NCBI GenBank assembly: GCA_963662275.1
Contig: OY759316.1
Coordinates: 3,616,001 to 3,680,000, forward strand
DNA length: 64,000 nucleotides
DNA from: Candidatus Cloacimonadales bacterium
GTDB lineage: Bacteria; Cloacimonadota; Cloacimonadia; Cloacimonadales; DAONDQ01
Reading direction: 5' to 3'
Shown: positions 27,262-35,760 of the stretch, piece by piece
How the letters are laid out: each line of letters starts with the position of its first letter
How positions within the stretch are numbered: the stretch's first letter is position 1
Made by a program: the position numbers and the translations under genes
Notes under the pieces: model-generated
Told to the model about the DNA's origin: nothing
The model's input: the letters and a program-made list of their open reading frames with translations, nothing else
Database searches by the model: none

Positions 27262-27622
27262 GTGGAGTAGGATTCCGATCCTACTGAATACGAGACTATC
27301 GTTTTGAACAGTTCATCGTGGAATGTGATTCATAGCATTTACGCCAAATGCTGCATAATCGTTATATATAACCATCCACTTTCATTTAACAAGAGGTGCA
27401 AGTTCAGCAGGATCGGCATCCTACACTACAATGCAAGACACAGTTACGTAAGATTGGAATCTTATGCCACAACCGCGTAAATGCGGAGCTACGATACAGT
27501 AGGATCGGCATCCTACTCCACAACCGCGTAAATGCGGAGCTACGATACAGTAGGATCGGCATTCTACTCCACAACCGCGTAAATGCGGAGCTACGTATAG
27601 TAGGATCGGCATCCTACTCCAC
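27262..27622. repeat. BIME-like array alternating two REP-like palindromes (50-51 bp period)
   Basis: gtaggatcggcatcctactccac-type units at 27448, 27499, 27550, 27600 separated by aaccgcgtaaatgcggagctac; opposing copy at 27262-27284. Confidence 0.9.
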
Positions 27623-27639
27623 ATGAAATAGGAACACAT

Positions 27640-28168: not shown

Positions 28169-29503
28169 ATGATGAGAAAATTGTTTTATTCTTATTTTAT
28201 TTTAATCTTCTTAACCGGAATCTTCTCTTTATCTGCTCAAACCTACCAGGCAACACGTCTAGTAGAACGGAATAGTGTGGAACATGGTTCCATGTGCACA
28301 GATGATATCTGGGAATCTTATACAGATTACAAACGGGAGATTGTACATTATTCCTCACTACAGGCAGATGTGATTGATTCCGTGGAAGTATTAAGTAAGC
28401 GAATCCAAACAGGTTATCCAAATAACTGGGTTCCATACCAGACCTATGATTTCCATCCTTCAGTTACTTTGTTAAATGAGGGAAGGATCGTCAATTTCAA
28501 TATCACCAGTACCCTAGGATGGTTTCCCAATTCGATCGTTGAAGTGTATGATTCAATGAACCATCTCGTTATGGTACACAGAGATTATGTTCACGATAAC
28601 ATACATACGGGAATAAGAAAGACTCTTTCCTATTTACCGGATGGCAATATCGACAATACATCAAGCTTTATATATGGCTGGGATACTGAACCAGATCAAT
28701 ATCTCAAGACAGTTCCCAATTATGATAACCAAGGCAGAAGGCTCTATGAAATACAATATACATCTCCTGATTCGATAACTTGGACTCCGGTAACCAAGAC
28801 CATCTTCACGTATACAGGAGAGACATATCCCGAGGGTTTGGTATTTCATACTTACCACCCCTTATTTTGTTTTAGTTCCTTTAATAACTGGGGTTCTGTT
28901 TTCTATAATGATGTTCCGGGTTTGCAAACTCCTTATGTAATAGATTCACTGGTCGTGCAACATTACTCCGATGGACAGTGGGCGGATAGTTTATATACTG
29001 ATTACCAGGTGAATCATTCGACAGGAAACGGATATGGATTTCAAACACGGGAGATCAATCTGACCATACCATTACCCATCGATGCTCAATACAAGCGAAT
29101 GAATTTTTATTTCCATGAAAATGGATATTATAACGGTGAATCCTATAGTATAGATGATGGACTCGCTCCACCTTGGGATCAAAGTATCAGCTATGCGTGG
29201 GAAGAGATAACTCCCAATCACGAACAAATTGCTATTCCTCAATCGGAAATCAGGATTGCTTGTTACCCGAATCCTTTTCAAATTAATCTGAATATCGTAC
29301 TTTCCAGCAAAGGAAACCAACCTACTGAGATATCAATCTATAACATCAGAGGGCAATTGGTAAGAAGTTGGCATCAAGTAAAAGGGAAAGAACTTACTTG
29401 GGATGGATTTGACAAGAATAAAAAGCATTCTCCTACTGGCATATATTTCATCAAGGCTCAACAAGGTAAAAGTGAAACCGTTAGGAAGTTCGTTAAAATG
29501 TAG
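28169..29503 (+). CDS. Secreted protein with FlgD-Ig/T9SS-like CTD
   Basis: Signal peptide, RBS AAGGAG; CYPNPFQ...IYNIRGQLVR...WDG...TGIYFIK...RKFVKM. Confidence 0.85.
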   Translation: MMRKLFYSYFILIFLTGIFSLSAQTYQATRLVERNSVEHGSMCTDDIWESYTDYKREIVHYSSLQADVIDSVEVLSKRIQTGYPNNWVPYQTYDFHPSVTLLNEGRIVNFNITSTLGWFPNSIVEVYDSMNHLVMVHRDYVHDNIHTGIRKTLSYLPDGNIDNTSSFIYGWDTEPDQYLKTVPNYDNQGRRLYEIQYTSPDSITWTPVTKTIFTYTGETYPEGLVFHTYHPLFCFSSFNNWGSVFYNDVPGLQTPYVIDSLVVQHYSDGQWADSLYTDYQVNHSTGNGYGFQTREINLTIPLPIDAQYKRMNFYFHENGYYNGESYSIDDGLAPPWDQSISYAWEEITPNHEQIAIPQSEIRIACYPNPFQINLNIVLSSKGNQPTEISIYNIRGQLVRSWHQVKGKELTWDGFDKNKKHSPTGIYFIKAQQGKSETVRKFVKM

Positions 29504-30007: not shown

Positions 30008-30895
30008 TCAAGGGGAAATCCTGACCAAGCGAAAGCCTATATCGCCGTAGCTGTAAGTCGAAGTGCTGTAGCTCCGAATGGAAACGGCGCAGTTGTTGTC
30101 ATTGCTGTACCAGCCACCGCCGCGTAGCACACGGTATGACCCGCTGACAGCGCCATGCGGGTTGGTCTGTGCACTACCCGGATAAGCACCATAAATGTCC
30201 CAATTCCACTCCCAGATGTTGCCACTCATATCATATAAGTCCAGTTCATTGGCTGTTTTCGTTCCAACTGTGTGACTCGTGCCACCAGAGTTATCACCAT
30301 ACCAAGCCACAATACCTAGCGTGTTACTGCCACTATAGGTATAACCATGAGTTGAGTTTCCACCCTTTGCAGCAAACTCCCATTCCGCTTCCGTAGGTAG
30401 ACGATAGCCATTGGCTGTCCAACTACAGGAGACATTGGTGTGATTGTTATAGTCTGTGTTCCAACCTGCAGGCCAGTCTGCAGGATTAGTCCCATAAGTA
30501 CTATAACTGTAGCAGGGAGTTATACCTTCATTCAAGCTGCGCCTGTTGCAATACTCAATGGTATTGAACCAGGAAACCTGTTCAACTGGTCCATTGGTCA
30601 CGCCAGTGAAATAGGAAGGATTCACTCCCATCACTGTCTGATAAGCAGACTGTGTCAGCTCATACTTATCCATGTAAAAGGAGGATACAGTTACATCAGA
30701 TGTGCCGTTATTGAAAGTACCGCCTGGAACAAGGATCATCTGGACAGGAGTTGTTCCCTGGCTGAAAGTGATATCCGTGATTTCATTCAGATTAAAAGTG
30801 GTTGTACCGTTTGTAGTATGCACATTCATCTGAGTCTGCGCAAAAAGAAAAGATGTAAAAAGTATAAGGCAGCTAATCAATAATATTTTGTACAT
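30008..30895 (-). CDS. Secreted FGE-sulfatase/CLec-fold protein, candidate DGR target
   Basis: Signal peptide; MILVPGGTF, PVEQVSW, YRLPTEAEWEFAA, NELDLYDMSGNIWEW, RVLRGGGW...GFRLVR. Confidence 0.9.
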   Translation of the reverse strand: MYKILLISCLILFTSFLFAQTQMNVHTTNGTTTFNLNEITDITFSQGTTPVQMILVPGGTFNNGTSDVTVSSFYMDKYELTQSAYQTVMGVNPSYFTGVTNGPVEQVSWFNTIEYCNRRSLNEGITPCYSYSTYGTNPADWPAGWNTDYNNHTNVSCSWTANGYRLPTEAEWEFAAKGGNSTHGYTYSGSNTLGIVAWYGDNSGGTSHTVGTKTANELDLYDMSGNIWEWNWDIYGAYPGSAQTNPHGAVSGSYRVLRGGGWYSNDNNCAVSIRSYSTSTYSYGDIGFRLVRISP

Positions 30896-30904
30896 CGTAT
30901 GCTC

Positions 30905-31357
30905 CTATTTTAACATCAGCATTTTATTGACTTTGATTTGGTCATTGCACTTGACCTTATAAATATAAGGACCCGTGGCACATGCTTTCCCGGTTTCATT
31001 CAAGCCGTTCCAGGTCAGTTCGTGTACTCCTTTAGTCATATACTCTTTTGCCAGAACCTTTACCAATTGCCCTCTAATGTTATAAATTGCTACTTCTGTC
31101 TGATACGGTTCCGACAATTCAAACTTGATTATGGTTGAGGGATTAAACGGATTGGGGTAATTGGTTAAAAACTTAATGGGGACTTTAGACAGGAACGCAA
31201 CCCAATCATTATTGGAGACATTGCTGAAATTGATCTGCTGAATATCCTGAACCTGGAACTCCGCAGTAGTTCCATTTGTGAGATGGACATACATGACATC
31301 ACAATACAACAGAAACGGAATCAGAATTAATAAAACGAGGAATATAACTCTGAACAT
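30905..31357 (-). CDS. Small secreted protein: short N-terminal motif + FlgD-Ig/T9SS-like CTD
   Basis: Signal peptide, RBS AGGAGG; NYPNPFNPST...IYNIRGQLVK...WNG...NKMLMLK. Confidence 0.87.
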   Translation of the reverse strand: MFRVIFLVLLILIPFLLYCDVMYVHLTNGTTAEFQVQDIQQINFSNVSNNDWVAFLSKVPIKFLTNYPNPFNPSTIIKFELSEPYQTEVAIYNIRGQLVKVLAKEYMTKGVHELTWNGLNETGKACATGPYIYKVKCNDQIKVNKMLMLK

Positions 31358-31519: not shown

Positions 31520-32105
31520 GACCCCCCTACCCCCCTTCTCAAGGGGGGATAATCATTAACGCCCCCCTTCTCAATGGGAAACTATCCTAAAAATCCTCCC
31601 TTCTCAAGGGAAAACTATCCTTAAAATCCCCCTCCTCAAGGGGAAACTATCCTTAAAATCCCCCTTCTCAAGGGGAAACTATCCTTAAAATCCCCCTTCT
31701 CAATGGGAAACTATCCTAAAAATCCTCCCTTCTCAAGGGAAAACTATCCTTAAAATCCCCCTTCTCAATGGGAAACTATCCTAAAAATCCTCCCTTCTCA
31801 AGGGAAAACTATCCTTAAAATCCCCCTTCTCAAGGGGAAACTATCCTAAAAATCCTCCCTTCTCAAGGGGAAACTATCCTTAAAATCCCCCTTCTCAAGG
31901 GGAAACTATCCTTAAAATCCTCCCTTCTCAAGGGGGAAACTATCCTTAAAATCCCCCCTTCTCAAGGGGAAACTATCCTTAAAATCCCCCTCCTCAAGGG
32001 GAAACTATCCTTAAAATTCCCCTCCTCAAGGGGGAAACCTTAAAATCCCCCCTCCTCAAGGGGGAAACCTTAAAATCCCCCCTTGAGAAGGGGGGTAGGG
32101 GGGTC
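31520..32105. repeat. Array of 17 direct ~32-bp hairpin units plus one inverted unit, bounded by a perfect 30-bp inverted repeat
   Basis: Unit aaactatccttaaaatcccccttctcaagggg; ends gacccccctaccccccttctcaagggggga (31520-31549) and its reverse complement (32076-32105). Confidence 0.93.
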
Positions 32106-32229: not shown

Positions 32230-33453
32230 TCATTTCATCAACACCAGCTTTCTGCTTGTTGCCTTCCCTTCAATGCTTATCCTGGCAAAATACACACCGG
32301 AAGCAACTGCAGAACCATTATCATCTGTCCCATTCCACAATACCTGATGATTACCCTGTGTGAAATGCTCATTCAGTAAACTTTTCACTTTCTGACCGCG
32401 GATGTTATAGATATCCAGATTCACTAATCCGGCTTTGGGAAGATCGAAGCTGATAGTGGTAGTTGGGTTGAAGGGATTGGGGTAGTTGGTGATTTCTAAT
32501 TCGGTAAGAAAAGAAATCGCAGGATCATTATTTGAAGTTAGATCAACCCAATAATATTGATAATTTTTGTAATTGTTCCAAGTGTCATTTTCAAACAATT
32601 GTTCAGTAATATCATATAGGTTATTATTAGCATCATATGTGTAAATAGTCTGATAATTATCAACCCATTGATTTGGGATTTGATAATAGTAGAATTGATT
32701 CACATGAGAAATAGTATTGGAAGAATTATAAGTATAGATATTTTTAATTTGATTTATCCAGTCTGTATCACCCCAGTATTGAAATACTTCGACACTTAAT
32801 AGATCTCCGTCATATGTTGCTGAATATCTACTTGAATTGTTCCAAGTATTATTTATCCAATCTTTCATCACATAAGAAATCTGATGTCCCTGTTCATCAT
32901 ACCCATATACTTTACTCTGTGCATCCTCCCATTGATTTAAATTCCACCACTTGAGAGAATCTGCAGAAACATGACCATTTGCATCATATTCATAAATTGA
33001 TTTGTGATAATTCTCCCATCCATTTTGCCATACCTGATCTAGTAATTCCATTACTTTATTTTCACTGTCGTATGTCGGAATTGAGCGACTTTCATTTTGT
33101 AATTCACCGTTATACTGATGTTGCGTCAAAGAAAGATTATATAAACCTGCATCATTGTAAGTCCACGATGTTACTTTTGATAGCATCCAATTAGAATATC
33201 CGGGTATAAGATAATCATGATAAATTAATCGCCCATTTTGATCATACTCAAATTGTTCTAGGTTCATAGCAGTCCATTCGGTTGTATATTCCCTTCCGTA
33301 AATATTATCAATATACCAGCCTCGTATAGGATTAGTATTAAAATTGCTAATTTTGGACAGAGTCAAATTGCTAGGAATAAGGGTCTGATTTGAAATCCCT
33401 AAAATTATAAATGGTATTAATATAAAAACTAAAGACAATCCTTTTTTTTTCAT
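32230..33453 (-). CDS. Secreted Tyr/Trp-rich beta-hairpin repeat protein (YxYDxxG repeats) with CTD
   Basis: Start ATG 33453 with RBS GGAGG; repeated W-x-N...YxYD motifs; NYPNPFNPTT...ASGVYFAR...RKLVLMK. Confidence 0.85.
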   Translation of the reverse strand: MKKKGLSLVFILIPFIILGISNQTLIPSNLTLSKISNFNTNPIRGWYIDNIYGREYTTEWTAMNLEQFEYDQNGRLIYHDYLIPGYSNWMLSKVTSWTYNDAGLYNLSLTQHQYNGELQNESRSIPTYDSENKVMELLDQVWQNGWENYHKSIYEYDANGHVSADSLKWWNLNQWEDAQSKVYGYDEQGHQISYVMKDWINNTWNNSSRYSATYDGDLLSVEVFQYWGDTDWINQIKNIYTYNSSNTISHVNQFYYYQIPNQWVDNYQTIYTYDANNNLYDITEQLFENDTWNNYKNYQYYWVDLTSNNDPAISFLTELEITNYPNPFNPTTTISFDLPKAGLVNLDIYNIRGQKVKSLLNEHFTQGNHQVLWNGTDDNGSAVASGVYFARISIEGKATSRKLVLMK

Positions 33454-33592
33454 TTTATCCTCCATTTTTTACTCTTATAGTAAGAAAGAAATACGATTCA
33501 TGTCAATTGATTTGTTTTCATAATATCTAAATGATTACTGATGCAGAAGGTGCCAGGTGACAGGTTTCAGGTGTCAGAGGCAGAGCAGAACT

Positions 33593-33648: not shown

Positions 33649-35760
33649 ATCGAGTAGGGTGATGCTGGCTAATTAATTCCAGCATCATCCCTCTCACAGA
33701 ACCGTGCGTACGGGTCTCGTACACGGCTCCTGATAATCCTTGTAATTACTCGTAGTAATTAAATAAAACACTTGTCTGAAGTGATGTCAAATCAAACAAC
33801 TTCATTTCTTCAAACCACTTGTTCGGCAAGGCAAAGCATAAGTGGAAGCTCTGAGCGTTACGCCATCTGGTCATAGATAGTTTTGGGCATTCTCCCTTGA
33901 AGCCTTGTCTGCGCATTGCTTTATGGAATGCTTTCCAGCTCTTCCATTCACGCATCTTCTTCATTCGAAGCCTCCTTCGTATCCATTCCATCAGGCTCGC
34001 AAAGATGCTTTTACAACTCGCAACTTTGAAATAGTTACCCCATCCCCTTAGTACAGGATTCAGGCTTCCTATCGTCATGGATATTGGGATGCCACTGTTG
34101 CGGGGAGTAAGCTTACGTATCTTATCCTTGAAACGTTTCAAACGCTCCTTGTCGATGCAGACACGGCTTCCTTTGATGAAAAATCCCAGATAGCTGATTC
34201 CTGTTTCGACACTGCTGATATGAGTCTTTTCCAGATTGACTTGCAAGCGAAGTTCTTCAAGTATCGCTGTCGCGATCCTTTGATATTGCTCTGCCTTTTT
34301 CCTGGTCGGAGCAAATATCAGGATGTCATCAGCATAACGTACTATCCTGATGTTCCGCTGTTTCATCCTCTGGTCGAACTCATCCAGATAGATATTCATC
34401 AATAAGGGTGAGATTACTCCACCTTGCGGACTGCCTATCTCAGTAGCTTTGAAATCCCCATCGACCATTACTCCTGATTTGAGAAAACGGCTGATTAATC
34501 TCAGCAATGTACCATCACTGATTTTCCTGTTCAGACGGCTCAATATCAGTTCGTGGTCTAAGGTGTCAAAACACTTGGATAAGTCCATATTCACAGCATA
34601 ACCCAAATTGTACGCTGTAAGAAAACGCTGAGCTTTCGCTACGGCATGTTGGCAAGACCGATGCGGTCTGTAACCATAACTGGACGGATGGAAGTCAGGC
34701 TCAAATATCGGTTGTATGATATTCAGGATTGCCTGCTGCACTACTCTGTCTCTTACCGTTGGAATGCCAAGCGGTCTCATTTTGCCATTGGGTTTGGGTA
34801 TCTCTAACCGCCTTACAGGTGATGGCTCGTAAGTACCTGCCATTAGTTCGTCGTGAAGTTGGTTGATGTTCACTGCCAGTTGTTCGTCAAAGTTTTCTAT
34901 ACTCTGCCCATCAATGCCTGATGCACCTTTATTCCGTTTCACCGAAGTAAAGGAAGCATACAAATTGGGCAGGGAGTACACCTTGTCGATTAAGCTGTAG
35001 TATTTTCTCATGACATTTCCTGTCTCATTGTGATTCGTTTTGCGGTGTTCATCGAGGATGAATGTCTCTTCATCAGGGTGTCCTGCCTTCTTTAGCATAT
35101 AGCAATATGACAGAACTGCTGCTTTTGAGCTTTGCCTGACTAATCAGTCTCGTGCGGTCGGGGTTGAAAGGAAGTTCGTCACCACTGTCAAACCGAGCCT
35201 CGAAGCATTTCAGCTTCTTCCTTCGTTTCTCACTTTTCATCGATTACTTTCCACATTTCAAATCATCCCTTTGGATTATCTTCATCCCTTCGCATGAACT
35301 GTATCCTTTTGAGATACAGCCCTCAGCATTACCGTGAATGCTGTCCCTTTTGTTTTATCCTCCAGACTGTCACCAGCTTTCATAGGCAAAAGGTTTGTCA
35401 CTACTACGGAATCATCTGCCACCTGCTATCGCTTGGCTTCTCACTTATCTTTCAACTTGATCGAAACGACTACCTTAAGTAGACAATAACAGGCTTCCCC
35501 AGTTAAGTTCTCCTGCCTGAATATGAAGCCATCTGTCATAATCTGTAGAGATATCCAGCTTTCGGGCTTTCCCACTTTTTGAAAGGTTACCCACTCTACA
35601 AACCAACATCAGTTCACTTGCGCTATGTTCCATATTCCCTCTGCGTCTTACTTCAGACCCTGCCGTTGCCGGCAACGCCCTTGACCTCGAGTTGACTTCC
35701 CGCTGATTAGGTGTCAGGACTTCTTCCAGTCCATCGGCGCAGAAAACATTCTGGGCAAAC
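33649..35760 (-). mobile_element. Group II intron, class C-like (terminator-targeting), ~2.1 kb
   Basis: 5' end GTTTGCCCAGAATG right after a hairpin + T6; domain V GAGCCGTGTACGAGACCCGTACGCACGGTTC, domain VI ending CCCTACTCGAT; encodes an RT/maturase. Confidence 0.9.
33746..35011 (-). CDS. ltrA: Group II intron reverse transcriptase/maturase, no endonuclease domain
   Basis: RPLGIPTVRDRVVQQA, SYGYRP, DLSKCFD, GSPQGGVISPLLMNIYL, RYADD, RGWGNYF thumb; probable start MRKYYSLIDK at 35011. Confidence 0.93.
   Translation of the reverse strand: MRKYYSLIDKVYSLPNLYASFTSVKRNKGASGIDGQSIENFDEQLAVNINQLHDELMAGTYEPSPVRRLEIPKPNGKMRPLGIPTVRDRVVQQAILNIIQPIFEPDFHPSSYGYRPHRSCQHAVAKAQRFLTAYNLGYAVNMDLSKCFDTLDHELILSRLNRKISDGTLLRLISRFLKSGVMVDGDFKATEIGSPQGGVISPLLMNIYLDEFDQRMKQRNIRIVRYADDILIFAPTRKKAEQYQRIATAILEELRLQVNLEKTHISSVETGISYLGFFIKGSRVCIDKERLKRFKDKIRKLTPRNSGIPISMTIGSLNPVLRGWGNYFKVASCKSIFASLMEWIRRRLRMKKMREWKSWKAFHKAMRRQGFKGECPKLSMTRWRNAQSFHLCFALPNKWFEEMKLFDLTSLQTSVLFNYYE

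Follow-up and report, generated by a model that had tools for sequence, protein, structure and literature searches.

Why should two adjacent genes, one encoding little besides a type IX secretion system (T9SS) sorting domain and the other a lectin-fold protein without such a domain, begin after their signal peptides with versions of one short motif? The question is raised by gene 1 (the "carrier") and gene 2 (the "passenger"), which lie in tandem on the reverse strand of a 64,000-nucleotide stretch of a Candidatus Cloacimonadales genome (phylum Cloacimonadota; GenBank assembly GCA_963662275.1, contig OY759316.1, positions 3,616,001 to 3,680,000). This whole stretch is hereafter called the window, and its numbering is used for all coordinates that carry no other label. 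Here we show that this is a real and conserved gene pair, undescribed in the literature searched. We consider the chances about even that the two motifs pair with each other and that the C-terminal sorting domain (CTD) of the carrier exports the passenger, tethers it to the cell surface, or does both; the passenger, we infer, acts as a binding protein.

A carrier and a passenger with a common N-terminal motif

The pair consists of the following parts, each given with the evidence on which its assignment rests (ORF, open reading frame; alignment A4 is described below).

30905–31357, minus strand: gene 1 (carrier), 150 amino acids, in which a signal peptide and the motif are followed by a linker and a type-A CTD of the T9SS (ORF list, profile matches)
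31298–31357, minus strand: putative signal peptide of gene 1, residues 1–20 (hydrophobic N-terminus; helix 2–17 in the structure model; putative cleavage site)
31223–31294, minus strand: carrier-type motif MYVHLTNGTTAEFQVQDIQQINFS, gene 1 residues 22–45, 24 amino acids (family conservation)
31163–31222, minus strand: linker of gene 1, residues 46–65, with a short predicted helix at 49–55 (alignment, AlphaFold2 model)
30908–31162, minus strand: T9SS type-A C-terminal sorting domain of gene 1, residues 66–150, starting NYPNPFNP (profile and Foldseek matches)
30896–30904, minus strand: 9-nt intergenic spacer between gene 1 and gene 2 (read from the sequence)
30008–30895, minus strand: gene 2 (passenger), 295 amino acids, with signal peptide, motif and FGE-sulfatase/C-type-lectin-like domain, and without CTD (ORF list, profile matches)
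30761–30829, minus strand: passenger-type motif MNVHTTNGTTTFNLNEITDITFS, gene 2 residues 23–45 (alignment A4)
30020–30742, minus strand: FGE-sulfatase domain, gene 2 residues 52–292 (PF03781, 135.4 bits)
30038–30115, minus strand: hypervariable stretch resembling the variable region of a diversity-generating retroelement (DGR), gene 2 residues ~261–286, nearly all NNY codons (homolog comparison, codons read)

An earlier note on this DNA had described two genes 9 nt apart that share a motif after their signal peptides, the first consisting of that motif and a CTD alone and the second combining it with an FGE-sulfatase/C-type-lectin-like domain while lacking both CTD and lipobox, and this description stands in all its parts. 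The spacing follows from the ORF coordinates, and both motif strings quoted in the note are found in the translations. The N-termini of the two proteins align at E = 3e-6 (BLASTP), and in both the motif begins 2–3 residues past a hydrophobic, signal-peptide-like N-terminus, which in gene 2 ends ...FLFAQ. Gene 1 scores above the cut-offs of TIGR04183 (37 bits, cut-off 23) and FlgD_ig (PF13860; 38.8 bits, cut-off 27) and just below that of PF18962 (26.4, cut-off 27); besides these CTD/FlgD_ig models, no other domain was matched in the profile searches. Gene 1 reads as a minimal type-A CTD cargo: what would remain of it after maturation is a small motif of three beta-strands with a short linker, and in this linker cleavage by the sortase PorU is expected.

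The match of gene 2 to PF03781 (cut-off 23.3) spans profile positions 4–255 of 255, and the domain ends three residues short of the C-terminus; the profile search gave no CTD match, and no enzyme-specific equivalog was reached, with EgtB, SenA, PvdO and GldK/J all far below their cut-offs. Gene 2 is a putatively Sec-exported lectin-fold protein, the mature form of which would begin with the partner's version of the motif. As regards a lipobox, the cysteines of the two signal regions are not conserved in the alignments (A1/A3 and A4): Cys19 of gene 1 sits in a non-canonical "LLYC" and is not kept in the family, and Cys9 of gene 2 lies within the hydrophobic core and is not kept in A4. Shine-Dalgarno-like sequences can be read ahead of gene 1 (AAGGAGG) and over its stop codon, 8 nt ahead of the ATG of gene 2 (AGGAG). 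The gene order and the 9-nt gap suggest that the two are co-translated from one operon; a promoter and terminator scan returned nothing exceeding shuffled expectation.

The genome, a single contig of 4.38 Mb with 39% G+C, carries five whole cassettes of this kind that are 81–86% identical in DNA, and the closest homologs of gene 2 bear Candidatus Cloacimonadota names. Five of the six gene-2-like paralogs directly adjoin a gene-1 copy. By regular expression and by motif hidden Markov model (HMM), the motif is confined genome-wide to these 5 carriers and 6 passengers, although FGE-sulfatase-like domains occur in 34 ORFs and matches to the CTD of gene 1 in 225, and because it is so limited, its sharing between the two genes exceeds chance. 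No conserved third gene was found around the five cassettes. Since the cassettes are paralogous within one genome, they count as one evolutionary event, and the true test lies in other genomes.

The pair recurs in four phyla

A search of 5.8 billion proteins returned many carrier homologs of ~150 residues that align over their full length at 33–48% identity and whose source names include Ignavibacteria, Caldithrix abyssi DSM 13497 (P0035, Calab_0829), Marinimicrobia and Cloacimonadota. Their motif follows the consensus MxVxLxxGxTxxFxVxDIQxLTF, in which G29, I39 and F44 are invariant or nearly so. Within genomes, carriers were located by a full-length family model (E <= 1e-41) that is blind to neighbouring genes, so that no carrier was picked by its neighbour; with 12–44 candidates scored per genome, the genome counts are lower bounds. 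A carrier is present in at least 20 of 232 genomes of the bacterium's own phylum (its own genome included), in at least 8 of 301 genomes in a sample of the phylum of an Ignavibacteriaceae genome and in at least 7 of 201 in a sample of the phylum of a Neomarinimicrobiota genome, and a carrier match occurs in at least 8 of 86 genomes in the phylum of a Calditrichia genome, one of these matches being to the CTD alone.

Outside the bacterium's own genome, Cloacimonadota yielded 20 carriers in 19 genomes. Eighteen of them are followed 8–97 nt downstream by a gene on the same strand with signal peptide and motif and without CTD. In the nineteenth (G184) a passenger-type gene starts 12 nt downstream, and the contig stops after its N-terminal part; in the last (G185) an M23 peptidase gene lies between carrier and passenger. 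A further 24 carriers come from Bacteroidota (Ignavibacteria), Marinimicrobia and Calditrichota; the locus of one is truncated where its contig ends, and all 23 that could be assessed precede a CTD-less gene at a spacing of -109 to +42 nt, the negative values arising because ORFs were over-extended to an upstream start codon.

The identity of these neighbours was checked with a motif HMM trained on Cloacimonadota passengers alone and applied across the phylum boundary. Seventeen of 22 out-of-phylum neighbours reached at least 10 bits; among the remainder, two scored 6.6–7.9 bits with full-length alignments and one 2.8, and two (L101 and L103) received no score from the HMM and show a divergent motif that is visible by eye. 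The 23rd neighbour (L182) scored 43 bits with the A4 profile. When the same HMM was run on 202 other ORFs of at least 100 amino acids from these loci, 198 stayed at or below 3.1 bits and four reached 10 bits, all four being additional signal-peptide-plus-motif proteins. The adjacency of motif-plus-CTD genes to motif-plus-passenger genes, which the earlier note had set as a test of its proposal, thus holds in four phyla for 42 of 43 assessable carriers.

Other ways of finding carriers were less productive. A contig scan with a family alignment keyed on the CTD word NYPNPFNP gave mostly unrelated CTD proteins, with L015 as the sole true carrier locus, and an ESM Atlas search with the motif-linker part of the carrier gave a best score of 0.78, below the useful level. 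Some long ORFs matched the carrier family model from position 18–23, from which came the idea that the motif is part of an extended C-terminal module in large cargo proteins; it was rejected after inspection of nine loci, none of which held the motif.

One gene joins the two partners in a single chain. P0241 (L140:3031–4488, plus strand), from a metagenome-assembled genome of Bacteroidota, encodes in order a signal peptide, a passenger-like motif, a GH130-like domain, a carrier-type motif, a linker and a CTD, and is followed by two LamG passengers bearing the motif. This fused form accounts for 1 of 120 homologs.

One motif precedes many unrelated domains

The genes downstream of carriers encode a wide range of Pfam domains, among them FGE-sulfatase, Laminin_G_3, Fib_succ_major, Cthe_2159, CpeT, DOMON and PD40/DUF5050, as well as CHB_HEX_C together with FGE, a multihaem cytochrome-c554-like protein with propeller matches, Big_1, or no recognised domain. 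The passenger domains are interchangeable.

The A4 profile was built from 34 passenger N-termini (signal peptide plus motif) from four phyla, in whose alignment I42 and F44 are nearly invariant. Against 1.84 billion representative proteins it found 1262 at E <= 0.001 and 87 at E <= 1e-10, with nearly all matches lying within residues 1–45. Among the best 149 representatives, Laminin_G_3 is the commonest domain (44), followed by Fib_succ_major (7) and Cthe_2159 (5), and Por_Secre_tail is present in at most 2 of these 149. The motif starts at a median residue of 22 and is present in two or three copies in 8 of the 149. At three loci of Marinimicrobia and Bacteroidota (L143:1722–3968, L134:4588–6819 and L145:670–2925) the gene upstream of the carrier encodes a Cthe_2159 protein of ~750 amino acids that bears two motifs at its N-terminus, giving the gene order passenger, carrier, passenger.

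Two motif classes and their predicted fold

The motifs of the two partners form classes that are distinct across phyla, approximately hxIH[KT]TDGxxxxhxLxEIDSITF in passengers and MxVxLxxGxTxxFxVxDIQKLTF in carriers. A passenger HMM scores above a carrier HMM in 18 of 22 out-of-phylum passengers, and the reverse is true of 20 of 22 carriers, a figure that is partly circular because the carrier HMM was trained in part on some of those carriers. That the two classes stay distinct across phyla points to what is probably an old heterotypic pair, as against repeated local duplication.

In the AlphaFold2 model of gene 1 (mean predicted local distance difference test score, pLDDT, 86.5; 59-sequence alignment) a signal helix is followed by strands at residues 21–25 and 31–35; the final third of the motif is modelled as coil, and after it come a helix (49–55) and a beta-sandwich. 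By Foldseek, the sandwich resembles FlgD, the CTDs of PorU and PorZ and that of the T9SS substrate NucA, with E-values that are weak (4e-4 to 4e-3), and the WxLIP entry 9i25 is also among the weak fold matches of the model. L080, a natural carrier with two tandem motifs, was modelled from a 9-sequence alignment at a mean pLDDT of 77.2; here six strands are predicted, three per motif, at pLDDT 77–84, and the CTD matches the PorU CTD 6za2_B with Z 10.8 and a root-mean-square deviation of 2.1 over 89 aligned residues. The rows of a fold search with the double-motif domain were dominated by the CTD (model residues 87–178), and the search barely probed the motif unit. In these models a third strand is seen in the two-motif carrier and not in the single-motif one, which fits a motif unit that would need a second copy to complete its fold, as in motif-motif completion. 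A complex prediction for the two mature proteins gave ipSAE values of 0.21 and 0.26 (mark 0.32); it was run without controls and counts neither way.

How the passenger might reach the surface

According to the reading that we favour, carrier and passenger would both get to the periplasm, where the two motifs would complete each other's small beta-sheet. The carrier CTD would then take the folded heterodimer through the SprA translocon, PorU would cut off the CTD and fix a carrier stub of ~45 residues on the cell surface, and the passenger would stay displayed through a non-covalent tether. PMC9251779 and PMC9143113 state, respectively, that the T9SS carries folded proteins across the outer membrane and that type-A CTD cargo is joined covalently to anionic lipopolysaccharide. 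The genome encodes an SprA-like translocon (282.6 and 160.1 bits) and a PorU-like sortase (582.4 bits, cut-off 420), both above the cut-offs of their families. A broader version of this reading, in which the pair represents a general piggy-back branch of the T9SS in the Fibrobacteres-Chlorobi-Bacteroidetes group, falls in our estimation a little short of an even chance. Here a mini-cargo of ~150 residues would dock by a heterotypic 24-residue motif, export through SprA and tether CTD-less passengers with dozens of domains as varied as LamG, FGE/C-type-lectin and Fib_succ_major lectin-like domains, beta-helix carbohydrate binders, propellers and haem proteins.

Several observations weigh against such a role for the carrier. 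The best PorV-like match in the genome lies below its cut-off (151.9 against 250 bits), the sixth gene-2-like copy stands alone at C1:457643, and no precedent for T9SS transport of a hetero-complex was found in the literature searched. The converse count, made in Cloacimonadota with full-length A4 matches at E <= 1e-6, shows a one-sided dependence. Of 50 passengers outside the bacterium's own genome, 32 are directly beside a carrier, 1 is one gene off from a carrier and 4 cannot be assessed because of contig ends, leaving 13 of 46 assessable passengers with no carrier within ~1–2.5 kb, two of them beside unrelated CTD proteins. Five genomes (G067, G068, G090, G091 and G234) have passengers, yet no full-length carrier among 105 matches listed, all candidates of the initial screen having been scored; one 192-residue ORF of G068 matched the carrier model from position 30. 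Nor do the numbers of motifs in the partners match: there are one or two motifs per carrier and between one and three per passenger, carrier-to-passenger ratios of 1:1, 2:1, 2:2 and 1:3 are all seen, and at L171:481–4674 (minus strand) and L172:1991–4947 (plus strand) a two-motif carrier is followed by two tandem passengers of ~400 amino acids.

These same facts feed the chief rival, which we regard as unlikely: that the motif is an anchoring or oligomerisation module that either binds a third envelope component shared by the partners (perhaps an outer-membrane protein or a glycan of the surface) or drives homo-oligomers of the passenger. The carrier would then be no export vehicle but an accessory fixed to the surface, as a primer, a spacer or a rival for that site. 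Carrier-less passengers, including those of the five genomes named, would be expected on such terms, and a motif in one to three tandem copies, in numbers that differ between partners, behaves like a repeat unit. This rival leaves unexplained, however, how passengers without CTD and lipobox cross the outer membrane, why all assessable carriers but one directly precede a passenger, the exception having one gene between, and why two partner-specific motif classes are kept across phyla. Improbable in our view is a further alternative, in which the carrier is a periplasmic cap or chaperone that masks the sticky N-terminal strand of the passenger and is then disposed of through the T9SS, or is a small signalling cargo like PorA. 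Apart from the motif the carrier contains no functional domain, the gene order and short gap suggest co-translation, and small CTD proteins with non-enzymatic roles do exist, PorA being described as one in PMC7712824 and PMC12152298. On the other side, no other export route for the passenger is evident, and P0241 keeps passenger domain and CTD on one chain, which argues for joint export rather than capping followed by release.

The similarity between the two genes might, finally, be a mere by-product, gene 1 having arisen when part of the 5' end of gene 2 was duplicated and fused to a CTD, without a function of its own, and the cassettes being copies of one accident. The five paralogous cassettes do represent one event within this genome, but a carrier family of ~150 amino acids is conserved at full length in four phyla, and carriers keep their own motif class and their place upstream of unrelated passenger domains, so that the comparison across genomes contradicts this explanation and we give it almost no credence. 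The reading in which the carrier docks, exports and/or tethers the passenger, already put forward in the earlier note, is the most economical and the one that we retain at the strength stated at the outset.

Is gene 2 diversified by a retroelement?

The earlier note had further proposed that the passenger is possibly DGR-diversified. One part of this stands: in the ~26 residues ahead of its final GFR, gene 2 is hypervariable among homologs that are otherwise 62–82% identical, and in the window this stretch consists of nearly all NNY codons. Such codons are the pattern that DGRs leave by adenine mutagenesis of AAY codons. The machinery was not found. In the complete genome there is no template repeat with A-biased mismatches, nor an AAY-rich stretch of the right kind; the sole non-genic look-alike (C1:1953311–1953397), with 4 of 18 mismatches at its A positions, is an intergenic remnant like the 3' end of an FGE gene (79.5% over 88 nt) with no open frame. 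None of the 18 RVT_1 matches in the complete genome is a candidate for a DGR-type reverse transcriptase. Seventeen lie in multi-copy intron-type ORFs of 412–465 amino acids, of which the window copy alone was checked (TIGR04416, 408 bits), and the remaining one is an 893-residue Cas6-RT-Cas1 fusion at C1:3092718–3095399, minus strand (L184:2719–5400), scoring 181.8 bits for Cas1, 63.3 for RVT_1 and 29.4 for Cas6. Between 29900 and 30455, 0 differences from the window are seen in the contigs of 4 DNA runs, which come from two studies; this identity is a weak point, because contigs drop rare variants.

In our reading the hypervariable stretch is left over from diversification in the past, or else it is the target of an element absent from this genome. 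That active DGR hypermutation of gene 2 is the key feature of the locus, with the pair serving a diversified receptor, seems to us highly improbable. It would account for the variable NNY stretch among close homologs, but all RVT_1 matches are otherwise accounted for, neither template repeat nor AAY-rich stretch nor variation between the runs was seen, and most passengers elsewhere have LamG or other domains.

Comparison with known systems

Gene 1 is like other type-A CTD cargo in having a hydrophobic N-terminus, read as a Sec signal peptide, an Ig-like sorting domain above the TIGR04183 cut-off, and SprA and PorU encoded in its genome. It is unlike them in that the "cargo" amounts to only ~45 residues, the functional domain being on a separate, CTD-less protein with the motif. 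Pairs of a type-B CTD cargo and a PorP/SprF-like anchor (PG1035-PorP and SprB-SprF, as given in PMC9143113) are likewise adjacent, T9SS-related and such that one partner holds the other at the cell surface. In those pairs, however, an outer-membrane barrel serves a cargo that brings a CTD of its own, whereas here a passenger without a CTD is matched with a protein that is a small CTD cargo in its turn. Hitchhiker transport, as PMC9251779 describes it for co-translocation of signal-less subunits by the twin-arginine translocation (Tat) system and for peroxisomal import of oligomers, resembles our proposal in that a folded, signal-less partner travels on a signal-bearing one. The machine and the membrane differ, and what is proposed here is a dedicated minimal carrier with a portable 24-residue docking motif for many unrelated passengers. 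With PorA of Porphyromonas gingivalis, the PorXY ligand (PMC7712824 and PMC12152298), gene 1 has in common that it is a small CTD protein without an enzymatic domain; for PorA, however, neither a sequence relation to gene 1 nor a neighbouring gene with a common motif nor a conserved passenger was found.

Among the passengers' possible analogues are the variable proteins of DGRs with a C-type-lectin/FGE-sulfatase fold, for example TvpA and Mtd. Gene 2 is like these in its fold family and in its C-terminal hypervariable stretch of NNY codons, and unlike them in that its genome, which is complete, lacks a DGR reverse transcriptase and template repeat and the four DNA runs show no variation. In Gram-positive bacteria, cohesin-dockerin and WxL/WxLIP display provide cases in which a covalently anchored adaptor holds non-covalently docked proteins, the genes of which are often close by. 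The folds and envelopes are unrelated to those considered here, where the docking unit would be a short N-terminal beta motif.

Surroundings of the pair

The pair is flanked by genes for two T9SS CTD proteins of unassigned function (28169–29503, plus strand, and 32230–33465, minus strand), and the upstream flanking gene shows an RHS-repeat-like match. Just upstream of gene 1, at 31531–32081, a 32-bp unit whose core is palindromic (CCCCTTCTCAAGGGG...) is repeated in tandem ~17 times; this element is dispersed across the genome as single units and short arrays. A 51-bp tandem repeat at 27467–27623 (3.1 copies, 96% matches) also has related copies at many genome sites. The group II intron reverse transcriptase/maturase mentioned above (TIGR04416) is encoded at 33746–35098 on the minus strand; the segment 33642–34000 has near-identical DNA copies at 10 other genome sites, and many of the genome's 17 intron-type RVT_1 ORFs have identical scores.

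Elsewhere in the genome, a single ORF of 3325 amino acids (C1:2907597–2917574, plus strand) holds ten tandem FGE-sulfatase-like domains that are 47–67% identical to gene 2, and a weak PorV-like ORF (C1:4327523–4328356, plus strand; 50.5 bits) lies ~1 kb downstream of one cassette only.

What the pair may mean

The earlier note knew of no characterisation of such an arrangement, and a search of the full-text literature, supplements aside, likewise yielded nothing on a CTD protein that carries CTD-less ones. Even without a role in export, the gene pair and its motif constitute a widespread conserved module for which the literature searched holds no description. The pair also offers a clean case for deciding whether the T9SS transports hetero-complexes, and, should the docking and export reading be true, the portable 24-residue tag together with a 150-residue carrier would make a simple tool for surface display.

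T9SS substrates are at present recognised by their own CTD, and the secretome in genome surveys comprises CTD-bearing proteins only. If the proposed route exists, more proteins than predicted would belong to the T9SS secretome in Cloacimonadota, Ignavibacteria, Marinimicrobia and Calditrichota, and extracellular proteins reported without a CTD would gain a testable explanation. If the general piggy-back version is true, at least 1262 protein clusters would take this route.

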